A stretch of DNA of 50,384 nucleotides, from the IMG/VR virus record IMGVR_UViG_2880412407_000006. One strand, 5' to 3'. Below, piece after piece: positions 15,001 to 18,000 of the stretch. Origin of the DNA: a virus. Lineage: Duplodnaviria; Heunggongvirae; Uroviricota; Caudoviricetes. Every line of letters starts with the position of its first letter. Within the stretch, counting starts at the first letter, position 1. Made by a program: the position numbers.

Positions 15001-18000
15001 ATGTTTCTTTTGTGCTGATTGGATGAATTTGGGTCACTTATGATGAGAGATGTTGCAGGAAAAGAAGTTGGCATTGATCTATTGGATAGTTAGAATTGCT
15101 GCGGGTGCTTGAGGCTATCTGCCTCAGGCATGAACACCAAAAGGCAGATAGAGAAAAGCCCCAGTTAACATTACGCGTCCGGCAAGACGCTTAACATTAA
15201 TCTGAGGCCAATTTCATGCTTTGCACATGTAGGTTAGCTGATCCTACCCACGTAATATGGACACAGGCCTAAGCGAGGTTCTGGTTTTCAAATTGTTCCG
15301 GACTGAGGCCGCCACACCAACTGTGCCGCCGCCACCGATTGTAATCACATTCGATATAATTAAACACCGTTGCCCGCATTATTTCCCGGCTGATAAAGTG
15401 TTCTCCATGGATACATTCCACTTTCAGCGAATGAAAGAAGCTTTCCACGCAGGCATTATCGTAGCAGCAACCTTTTGCGCTCATACTTCCACGCAGATTA
15501 TGCCGCTTCAGTTGCGCCTGATAATCTGCTGAACAGTACTGGCCTCCACGGTCCGTGTGAACGATAACGTTCCGGGGCCTCTTACGCCGCCACAGCGCCA
15601 TCTGCAGGGCATCGCAGGCCAGTTGCGCCGTCATGCGTGGCGACATTGACCAGCCAATAACGGCACGTGACCACAGGTCAATGACCACTGCCAGATACAG
15701 CCAGCCTTCATCTGTACGTAAGTACGTGATGTCTCCTGCCCACTTCTGGTTCGGGCCACTGGCGTAAAAATCCTGCTCCAACAGATTTTCTGACACAGGC
15801 AGGCCGTGTGCGCGGTAGCTGACCGGGCTGAACTTCCGGGAGGCCTTTGCCCTCAGTCCCTGACGGCGCAGGCTTGCCGCCACGGTTTTTACGTTAAAGG
15901 GGTAACCCTGAGCACGCAGTTCATCCGTCAGGCGTGGGGCACCGTAACGCTGTTTTGACCGGGTAAAAGCCGCGAGGACAACGCTGTCGCAGTGTTGGCG
16001 GAACTGCTGACGCGTGCTTATCCTTGTCCGCCGCTGACACCACGTATACCAGCCGCTGCGGGCCACCCGGAGCACGCGGCACATTGCTTTGATGCTGAAC
16101 TCAGCCTGATGTTTTTCAATAAAGACATACTTCATTTCAGGCGCTTCGCGAAGTATGTCGCGGCCTTTTGGAGGATAGCCAGCTCTTCATCCCGTTCTGC
16201 CAGCTGGCGTTTGAGACGTGCAATCTCGGTAGACATCTCCAGTTCACGTTCAGAAGACGTCTGCTGATTTTGCTGTTTACTGCGCCAGTTGTAGAGCTGT
16301 GATTCATACAGGCTGAGTTCACGGGCTGCGGCAGTAACACCGATGCGTTCAGCAAGCTTCAGGGCTTCACTGCGAAATTCAGGCGAATGCTGTTTACGGG
16401 GTTTTTTACTGGTTGATACTGTTTTTGTCATGTGAGTCACCTCTGACTGAGAGTTTACTCACTTAGCCGCGTGTCCACTATTGCTGGGTAAGATCAAGCC
16501 TCTTACGTGCCGAAAGGCAAGGAGAAGCAGGCTATGAAGCAGCAAAAGGCGATGTTAATCGCCCTGATCGTCATCTGTTTAACCGTCATAGTGACGGCAC
16601 TGGTAACGAGGAAAGACCTCTGCGAGGTACGAATCCGAACCGGCCAGACGGAGGTCGCTGTCTTCGTAGCCTACGAACCTGAGGAGTAAGAGACCCGGCG
16701 GGGGCGAAATCCCCCGCCACCTCTGATGTGTCAGGCATCCTCAACGCACCCGCACTTAACCTACTTCGGCGGTTTTTTTTCACGTACTGTGGTTGTGAAT
16801 ACGATTGGTATTAGGATATGCTAACAACATTAGCTTGACTAATTTTGTATTGACTTGATTTTTGTTAAAGAACAGGACGGAGAAGTAAGGGGGGCACCCA
16901 ATGAGCTACGCACTAAAAAAACACCCGCGATTGACTATTCCCCCTCGCGATAAAAGCGTTGTGGCAGCTCCGCGCCCGGCTATCGATGAAAATTGCACTC
17001 ATCGTGAGCAGGTGAAAAATGCTTTCGATTTCGGTTTTTCTCGTTACGAGAAGGCAATGGAAGAACTTTCAAAAGTGTAATGATGGGTATTGTGCTCTAT
17101 GGCTGAGATTGTTGAAGGAGTGCATTACCTTACGGTTGATGATCTTGTTGAAATCAATCGTTCCCTAATTGAATTACAGACGCCAGATGAGCTCGTTGGT
17201 GTTCTGAGTCCAGATAACTTAAGTTCTTCTCAGGCCCGTCCCAGCATGGTTCGATGGTATGAACAGACTAATGACATGTTTGTACTGGCATCGGTATTGA
17301 TTGAAAGTCTGATTCAGAATCATCCGTTTGCTAATGCGAACAAACGAACAGCTATGATGGCTGGTTACGTCTTCTTGTTGTTGAATGGCTATGAATTAAC
17401 AGCACCAGGCGATGAAATCGTGGAAATGGCAGAGGGACTGGCCTGCAAAACCTATACTCGAGAAGATCTCGAGAACTGGTTGTGTTATTGGTCTCGCGCG
17501 TATGACAGCCGGGAATTATGTAAAACAGGCGCAACTATTGTTTTGTATGAAACTATCAAGTTTAAAATGGAACAGCAAAACTAAAGGTGCTTCCAATGAA
17601 AACCCGCTTCGGCGGGTTTTTTGTTGTTTATTTTCGGTGAGTATGATGCATCTGGTTGTACTGATGTGGTTGGCTGATTCTGTTATTCAGGTGGCTTATT
17701 GCTGTTGATCGGTATGTCTTCACGGCTAGAATCGAGGCTCTTAAGTAGCGCGCAGGGAGAAGAGGGATGGACCCCGAAGGGGAAGAGCTATTTATCTGGA
17801 AGGATTCTGAAGATGAAAATCGAAGAATTGCGTGAAATTTTTAGTGAAAATGGCCTCTATGCTGTGCGCGTTGAGAATGGGAAAGTTGTCTACACAACGT
17901 TAATCCCTGATGATCATGTAATTTTATCTATCGAGGCATTCATTGAATACCTTGAAAGGCTCGGTTTCAAGGTAGTTCGCGAATGAGTTATAATTCGTAA

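Follow-up and report, generated by a model that had tools for sequence, protein, structure and literature searches.

The window analysed here, i.e., the whole stretch of 50,384 nucleotides (nt) of the IMG/VR virus record IMGVR_UViG_2880412407_000006 (Caudoviricetes), carries at positions 16901-17627 a cassette in which a small open reading frame (ORF) encoding 59 amino acids (aa) precedes a Doc-family gene that is followed by a strong terminator. We consider it probable that this cassette is a mobile type II toxin-antitoxin-like module, a 'moron', in which a predicted Doc kinase toxin is paired with a 59-aa minimal Phd-C-like antitoxin. Doc toxins are a textbook toxin-antitoxin family, and all Doc antitoxins known to us join the neutralising tail to a folded domain, which is Phd/YefM, AbrB/MazE-like or Panacea. 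As an ordinary Doc-family member, the toxin of the window already bears that annotation, and the module may work like Phd-Doc but with a different, minimal partner.

The Doc-family gene and its small partner

The assignment of the downstream gene to the Doc family is secure at the sequence level. Hidden Markov model (HMM) searches of both ORFs confirmed it and left the small ORF without a family: the Doc protein matches Pfam Fic PF02661 with 46.4 bits (cut-off 24; 7.5e-12), TIGR01550 DOC_P1 with 124.7 bits (cut-off 38.65; 2.2e-36) and phrog_577, 'Doc-like toxin', at 6e-51. A profile search with 43 family members against 177,635 PDB sequences matched four distinct sequences, every one of them a Doc; the closest solved structure is the Enterococcus faecalis Doc 9VZC (9vzc_A, 2.8e-33, positions 6-131), and P1 Doc (3k33_A) was found at 4e-15 in the same search and at 3e-5 in a single-sequence phmmer comparison. 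The peptide HPFANANKRTA, which the first-pass annotation had taken for a Doc-type motif, is encoded at 17321-17353 and indeed fits the Doc motif HxFx(D/N)(A/G)NKR, which is set against the AMPylating HxFx(D/E)GNGR form (PMC13034048). HPFANANKR corresponds to Doc residues 75-83, and H75, F77, N81, K82 and R83 are invariant in an alignment of 43 sequences (A5). AlphaFold2 models built with 24 and then with 94 aligned homologues were of low confidence (predicted local distance difference test scores of 58 and 55), and a Foldseek search of the PDB with the first of them gave no match at E <= 0.001 (DocH66Y came second, E = 1.3). The fold membership thus rests on the profiles, and because of the profile homology to solved Docs a non-Fic fold is very unlikely.

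Translation of Doc most likely starts at ATG 17099, giving 161 aa, rather than at TTG 17090, giving 164 aa, because the N-terminus MAE(I/F)VEG is kept in 24 homologues (alignment A2) and the Prokaryotic Genome Annotation Pipeline, which names the protein (WP_000818166.1, 161 aa) 'type II toxin-antitoxin system death-on-curing family toxin', picks the same ATG. The initial impression of a protein longer than the classical Doc (126 aa in P1) was therefore right, while the initial length of 164 aa is likely three residues too high. The homology to solved Docs spans residues about 6-131; it is followed by a C-terminal extension consisting of a WSRxYDSRxLC stretch (about 10 residues, to residue ~141) that is conserved in the subfamily and of about 20 variable residues.

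The small ORF is annotated as no more than a 'hypothetical protein'. As a single sequence it had no match in Pfam, NCBIfam (E <= 1), PADLOC or the PDB, its sole match being phrog_2208, a family with no function attached, a profile built from 28 small-partner members likewise gave nothing in these databases, and none of the 28 members matched Pfam. Since gene callers often skip this ORF and its homologues number about 85 clusters as against at least 279 for Doc, it could be argued that it is not a gene at all and constitutes just the 5' leader of an orphan Doc. This we regard as extremely improbable, and the following observations appear to have effectively refuted it already. In the annotated frame the proportion of non-synonymous differences (pN) is 0.21 versus 0.70 for synonymous differences (pS), with a median dN/dS of 0.15, while in both other frames pN exceeds pS; judged by this pattern, the ORF codes for a protein and is under purifying selection in its own frame only. 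The start codon, the Shine-Dalgarno sequence and the length are kept from Escherichia to Marinobacter, with protein identity going down to 24%, and GAGG or GGAGG stands 5-9 nt before the ATG in all 33 gammaproteobacterial loci, with 32 loci tabulated for the position of this element. Homologues were retrieved as 17 close clusters in the first protein search and as 85 clusters in a profile search, and an HMM search of 1.84 billion representatives yielded 39 proteins, nearly all of them 47-62 aa long, matching end to end and labelled 'hypothetical'. Among the retrieved homologues there is no fusion of the small partner to another domain, DNA-binding domains included. One 39-aa entry (P0015) was considered as a naturally truncated partner and rejected, since it merely reflects another start call and the full ORF is intact there.

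The family consensus, MxHALKKxxRLxIPPRDKSxVAxPRPA...QVKNAFxFGFxRYEKAMEELSKV, falls into two parts. The N-terminal 34 residues are proline-rich, with five prolines within the first 26 residues (P9, P14, P15, P24 and P26), and contain the RLxIPPRDK element. Conservation is highest in the C-terminal 25 residues (EQVKNAFDFGFSRYEKAMEELSKV; pN 0.13 versus 0.26 for the N-terminal part), which are nearly invariant in enterobacterial members, contain no proline and show hydrophobic periodicity.

The two genes go together. When a Doc alignment was searched against one genome per species and the upstream DNA was read for each gammaproteobacterial match, a homologous ORF of 54-62 aa ended 0-23 nt before Doc in 33 loci out of 33. 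The genera include Serratia, Providencia, Yersinia (Y. pestis), Morganella, Citrobacter, Xenorhabdus, Hafnia, Arsenophonus, Gilliamella, Pseudomonas, Halomonas, Kushneria and Marinobacter, and when the small ORF served as the anchor of a look-up, a Fic gene was seen to follow it immediately in Pseudomonas and Vreelandella. The divergence of the partner and that of the Doc proteins are correlated (r = 0.91; none of 2000 permutations as high). The pairing of the small ORF and Doc is thus shown here to be obligate in the loci compared. Doc is broken by a frameshift or truncation next to an intact partner in four of the 33 loci (L020, L029, L032 and L033, i.e., Providencia sp. Me31A, Gilliamella Lep-s35, Proteus penneri and Arsenophonus nasoniae), and the reverse occurs in none; this is the pattern expected of a toxin and its antidote, but it is not significant (p about 0.28), and the excess was rejected as proof of toxicity on account of the small sample.

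One partner homologue stands by itself. In a lambdoid phage contig (L094, 3001-3165) a 54-aa protein (P0204), nearest to the Gilliamella form, is encoded between the Q antiterminator and the holin genes; a tRNA-like sequence follows, and no Doc remnant was detected there by tblastn. It could be a decayed module or orphan antitoxin, or else an anti-defence antidote.

Organisation, mobility and upstream region of the cassette

The element that carries the cassette is a lambdoid prophage at the Rac site (ttcA-intR-xisR-ralR-recET...). Positions 16450-17700 (1,251 bases queried) are 100% identical to the chromosome of Escherichia coli 2014C-3599 and other O121:H19 strains. The cassette has the replication genes of the prophage on one side and the DUF1367/YbcO/DUF1133 late-regulation block on the other. 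The Doc gene, the small upstream ORF and the strong terminator of the first-pass annotation are all present, and the features of the region are as follows.

16534-16689: hokD, directly upstream of the cassette (Pfam HOK_GEF, 6e-23)
ending near 16779: T-run that closes the hok transcript region, followed by a 120-nt spacer before the small ORF
16806-16814, + strand: TGGTATTAG, candidate extended -10 element, found by eye only; tentative cassette promoter
16829-16843, no strand: dyad ATTAGCTTGACTAAT, candidate operator, inside the best upstream inverted repeat
16887-16894, + strand: AAGGGGGG, purine-rich Shine-Dalgarno-like sequence, 6 nt ahead of the small-ORF ATG
16901-17080, + strand: small partner gene, ATG start, 59 aa (WP_000119356.1, 'hypothetical protein', phrog_2208)
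17099-17584, + strand: predicted toxin gene of the Doc family (Fic fold), 161 aa (WP_000818166.1)
17321-17353, + strand: codons of HPFANANKRTA, the Doc-type active-site motif, an instance of HxFx(D/N)(A/G)NKR
17598-17627, + strand: Rho-independent terminator from a terminator scan, with a 10-bp stem, a GC-rich core and a T-tract (hairpin 17598-17621)

The small ORF and Doc lie in one reading frame, with a double stop (TAA TGA) and then four sense codons (12 nt) between them. The length of 59 aa initially given for the upstream ORF stands, whereas the 10-bp spacing has to be corrected to 9 nt if Doc is read from the TTG and to 18 nt if it is read from the ATG. The spacer 17078-17101 of the window holds 8 nt (TGATGGGT) more than that of eight related cassettes (alignment A4), which is why its gap is 18 nt, as against 0-10 nt in most other loci. 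No Shine-Dalgarno sequence of its own is apparent by eye for Doc in the window or in most loci, where Doc starts 0-18 nt past the partner stop, and therefore its translation is likely coupled to that of the small ORF. The terminator hairpin folds with -16.2 kcal/mol (z = -3.8; none of 200 shuffles as stable), while the predicted 5' leader is not unusual in its RNA structure (z = -0.4).

The self-contained character of the unit, surmised at first reading, is borne out by its recurrence as a block of two genes and a terminator in at least six unrelated genomic contexts. The pair adjoins hok in the early (nin) region of E. coli lambdoid prophages, lies inside the baseplate module of a myovirus-like prophage of Ewingella, is found elsewhere beside tail-fibre, dinI and umuDC genes, occupies the genome end next to the integrase in Pseudomonas phage Sirocco (P2-like, Peduoviridae) and phage LPPA56, and adjoins smpB in Pseudomonadaceae. 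In Vreelandella (Halomonadaceae) the small ORF and a 142-144-aa Doc (L095/L096, 3001-3608) are inserted by themselves between trpE and trpG, away from any phage genes, and the pair is thus not restricted to prophages. A terminator hairpin with compensatory stem changes follows the Doc stop in all nine cassettes of alignment A4; a terminator was called by script in 19 of 32 loci scanned, a count that leaves out two weak calls (L024 and L037), and tool scans or A4 add at least two more. Judging from these comparisons, the two genes and the terminator move as one unit.

Among 5426 complete E. coli genomes 124 carry the cassette, always in the chromosome; Shiga-toxin lineages such as O104:H4 and O121:H19 are among the carriers, as are O103:H2 and O157:H7 strains, and both genes are annotated in every E. 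coli row inspected. The cassette also occurs in Salmonella, Yersinia pestis, Serratia and Pseudomonas phages, and at least 279 clusters of the Doc protein are on record.

The assignments of a promoter and an operator in the window were made by eye and are tentative. The TGGTATTA block at 16806-16814 is common to the Citrobacter, Kluyvera, Izhakiella and Rosenbergiella cassettes (alignment A9). The best inverted repeat in the 145 nt upstream of the small ORF lies at 16824-16848 (p = 0.02 against shuffles), and by the same measure the corresponding repeat reaches p <= 0.1 in 14 of 30 loci, although some of these repeats are probably terminators of upstream genes. By alignment, Ewingella, Serratia, Y. 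pestis and locus L004 share a TTGAnn-17-TA(C/G)ACT arrangement with the spacer filled by a dyad, and the dyads differ from locus to locus with their symmetry kept (TTACCTTTAAGGTAA, ATATCGCCCGGGCTATA, ATATAGCTTGAGCTATA). In alignment A10 (loci L002, L004, L006 and L008) the dyads lie within a TTGAnn-17-TACACT spacer, often around a CTT(A/G)AG-like core, and AT-rich dyads with such a core, akin to that of the window, are found upstream of the small ORF in other loci. Taken as a set, the dyads look like a family of candidate operators with changing specificity, and they would fit an operator as in other toxin-antitoxin operons.

Neighbouring elements of the prophage

The placement of the cassette next to hokD in the first-pass annotation is correct, with the qualification that the hok locus itself is split. 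The hok/sok locus is interrupted by an IS3 element (15240-16496) with a 3-bp AGC duplication at its borders, and this element separates the sok/leader region recognised by Rfam (15103-15273, 80.9 bits) from the hokD ORF, which starts 37 nt past the end of the insertion sequence. Because of this separation hokD has probably lost its own promoter and leader in this strain. The order hok-partner-Doc is also found in other E. coli genomes, there with no insertion sequence, and one E. coli prophage of this layout has a RelE-family gene immediately beyond Doc in opposite orientation (L088, 3547-3855, - strand), which adds another toxin-antitoxin gene to the slot.

Upstream of IS3 there is a convergent gene pair, 'sce7726 family' at 13080-13658 (+ strand) and 'beta family' at 13618-14715 (- strand), which matches PADLOC 'cll' (2.4e-28) and PD-Lambda-2_C (1.8e-41). 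Since this PD-Lambda-2-like pair, hokD and the Doc cassette share the slot between the replication and late-regulation genes, that slot looks like a defence and accessory hotspot.

Further along the prophage, Rfam recognises a cluster of RNAs at 19506-20880 around a truncated ORF6N antirepressor gene: c4-a1b1 and C4 antisense RNA (19506-19704), isrK (19519-19595), a tRNA (20479-20538), STnc100 (20625-20818) and the anti-GcvB small RNA AgvB (20819-20880, - strand). A regulatory RNA cluster of this kind is typical of lambdoid prophages of enterohaemorrhagic E. coli. In addition, a full-length match to the ALIL frameshifting pseudoknot (RF01497; 2058-2174, - strand; 121.5 bits against a gathering threshold of 50) lies on the coding strand inside the Rac-type integrase gene intR and not in IS3, where it would be expected.

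The partner compared with Doc antitoxins and the proposed role of the module

The Phd-Doc systems of P1 and Salmonella Typhimurium (PDB 3K33, 3DD7; PMC9207808) resemble the cassette in that a Fic-fold Doc with the HxFx(D/N)(A/G)NKR motif is encoded in a two-gene operon of a (pro)phage with the antitoxin gene upstream, a role that in the window is predicted. Phd neutralises through a C-terminal helix some 22 residues long, and the hot spots of Salmonella Phd are F56, M60, H63, L67 and L70, the last leucine being three residues from the end (PMC9207808). This spacing recurs in F42, F46, Y49, M53 and L56 of the 59-aa protein, which likewise ends three residues later, a coincidence suggestive of a Phd-like mode of neutralisation. 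The differences are considerable. The partner is 59 aa long and Phd 73; it lacks the Phd/YefM domain for DNA binding and dimerisation as well as any detectable sequence homology to Phd, the folded N-terminal domain of Phd/YefM (about 50 residues) being absent and only 34 residues preceding the conserved C-terminus. The window Doc is only distantly related to P1 Doc and extends about 35 residues further at the C-terminus. For P1, a plasmid prophage, addiction is the obvious role, whereas the element of the window is integrated in the chromosome.

Comparison of profiles by hhalign gave a probability of 1.9% for P1 Phd against the small-partner family, which is not significant, and none of the 28 members matched MazE/AbrB (PF04014) in Pfam. 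The dissimilarity to Phd that the first-pass annotation had noted by eye is thereby upheld, the absence of any Pfam, NCBIfam, PADLOC or PDB match pointing the same way. Because the hhalign comparisons are not significant, we do not file the partner as a relative of Phd or AbrB; on the searches for the defining domains, none of which was found, it is not a member of either Phd/YefM or AbrB/MazE.

The closest structural reference for the toxin, the E. faecalis Phd-Doc complex (9VZC; PMC13034048), has an antitoxin that is AbrB-like and neutralises Doc through its bent C-terminal helix 52-79 (PMC13034048). Docs with 32-35% identity to that of the window, from Streptococcus and a cyanobacterium, carry antitoxins of 75-78 aa at the same upstream position; the cyanobacterial one matches Pfam MazE_antitoxin PF04014 (1.8e-07), and the streptococcal one has no Pfam match. 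When these two were aligned to the small-partner family by hhalign, only the last 20 residues aligned, in the same C-terminal register and without significance (P = 0.05). A short N-terminal strand-like motif, '(L/I)T(I)P', can be seen by eye both in the E. faecalis, Streptococcus and cyanobacterial antitoxins and in the partner family. However, these antitoxins (75-79 aa) have a complete AbrB/MazE-like beta-sheet DNA-binding domain, while the partner has only the ~34 proline-rich residues before the helix. It was shown that the isolated Phd-C element neutralises Doc once it is stabilised and that some antitoxins have nothing but the neutralisation domain (PMC10440598, PMC9207808), and NetFlax analysis found that a C-terminal Phd-like two-helix element on Panacea or even on SUMO suffices for neutralisation (PMC10440598). 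The architecture of such Phd-C or single-domain antitoxins is the same as the one we propose for the 59-aa partner, which differs in having RLxIPPRDK and a (Y/F)xxAxxELxK(V/R) C-terminus; the relation is by analogy, with no significant sequence similarity. In literature searches by topic, by accession and by PHROG number the partner family was not found named or studied.

For the proposed module we infer toxicity, EF-Tu as the target, neutralisation, the mode of binding, autoregulation and a biological role along the following lines. From a bicistronic mRNA the small protein would be made first and in excess owing to its good Shine-Dalgarno sequence, and Doc would be made 18 nt further on by translational coupling and in smaller amounts because of the absence of an apparent ribosome-binding site. 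The C-terminal helix of the partner would dock on Doc in the manner of the C-terminal helix of Phd or of Phd-C and keep the kinase off, and its proline-rich N-terminus with RLxIPPRDK could be a disordered region, a handle for degradation or sensing, or a minimal DNA contact. Should the synthesis of the labile partner stop, either through phage shut-off of host expression or through loss of the element, the peptide would be degraded and Doc set free; by homology with P1 and Salmonella Doc, the free toxin would phosphorylate EF-Tu, halt translation and arrest the cell. The outcome may be abortive infection, exclusion of competing phages or prophage addiction. The gene order, the small size, the coupling and the C-terminal conservation fit the type II layout, which makes the small protein the probable antitoxin. 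Least certain in this proposal is the biological role: hokD and the PD-Lambda-2-like neighbours favour a role in defence against, or exclusion of, phages, and selfish addiction, the obvious alternative, fits the bare trpE-trpG insertion.

Several observations weigh against the toxin-antitoxin interpretation or parts of it. Upstream of the small ORF, neither the window nor two related loci yielded a sigma-70 promoter above the threshold of the scan. Classical autoregulation is uncertain, since no DNA-binding domain can be recognised in the partner. The hhalign probabilities for the partner C-terminus against Phd or MazE/AbrB-like antitoxins are 1-2% (P ~0.03-0.05), and the hydrophobic spacing shared with Phd is what any amphipathic helix gives. 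It is only the context that suggests an anti-phage role; in PADLOC the small ORF has no match and Doc only weak, Fic-type ones (E ~2e-3 to 2e-2; candidates PDC-S23 and PDC-S05). The 4-to-0 asymmetry of decay lacks significance when the ~2.7 times longer target presented by Doc is taken into account, and one partner gene, that of L094, exists without Doc.

It is conceivable that the partner is obligate and yet no inhibitor, acting as a subunit that confers specificity or activates Doc, as a chaperone or as a transcriptional regulator of the operon, with Doc restrained otherwise, e.g., by its own C-terminal extension. Such a role would account for the lack of significant similarity to any antitoxin family, for the WSRxYDSRxLC stretch and variable tail that solved Docs do not have, and for the upstream dyads, which suggest some DNA-binding factor. 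We nevertheless deem it unlikely, since the gene order, tiny size, coupling and C-terminal conservation are those of a standard type II antitoxin, since distant Docs have a MazE-type or similar antitoxin of 75-78 aa at exactly the same position, since loci with a broken Doc retain the partner and the reverse was never seen in the 33 loci, and since a solo partner copy in a phage is what would be expected of an antidote. A little less credible still is the idea that Doc is a phage effector for host takeover or lysogenic conversion, tuned by the small protein and possibly directed at a target other than EF-Tu. The PHROGs category of phrog_577 is 'moron, auxiliary metabolic gene and host takeover', phages carry the overwhelming majority of the cassettes, and Fic/Doc enzymes differ in their chemistry (PMC10440598); moreover, identity to P1 Doc is low (phmmer 3e-5), so that the target specificity is not assured. 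On the other hand, the kinase motif HxFx(D/N)(A/G)NKR is fully conserved and is not the AMPylating GNGR form, the bare trpE-trpG pair outside prophages is typical of selfish toxin-antitoxin modules, and frameshifted Docs in four of 33 loci fit a costly toxin.

The toxin-antitoxin module remains our preferred interpretation, and the first-pass annotation, which took the two ORFs for a toxin-antitoxin or abortive-infection cassette, is supported to that extent. A bolder version of it, which we find on balance doubtful, would have the 55-62-aa proteins form a new antitoxin family of free-standing Doc-neutralising peptides without a DNA-binding domain, with RLxIPPRDK as a sensor, a degradation handle or an operator-binding strand; the module would then be a phage-borne system of abortive infection or superinfection exclusion, and solo copies such as that between Q and the holin gene in L094 would be counter-defence antidotes.

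Because modular exchange of antitoxins is well established, current views are not overturned by these findings. The locus exemplifies a gammaproteobacterial Doc subfamily with an unnamed stand-alone mini-protein as a partner, and its consistent occurrence in phage accessory slots, with hok and PD-Lambda-2-like neighbours, makes it a reasonable candidate for prophage defence. If the mini-protein is the antitoxin, a gene that is now 'hypothetical' or not called at all would gain an annotation, and the protein would be a natural minimal Doc inhibitor showing how little sequence silences a Fic-fold kinase, which may be of use in the design of peptide inhibitors, as already pursued for Salmonella Doc.

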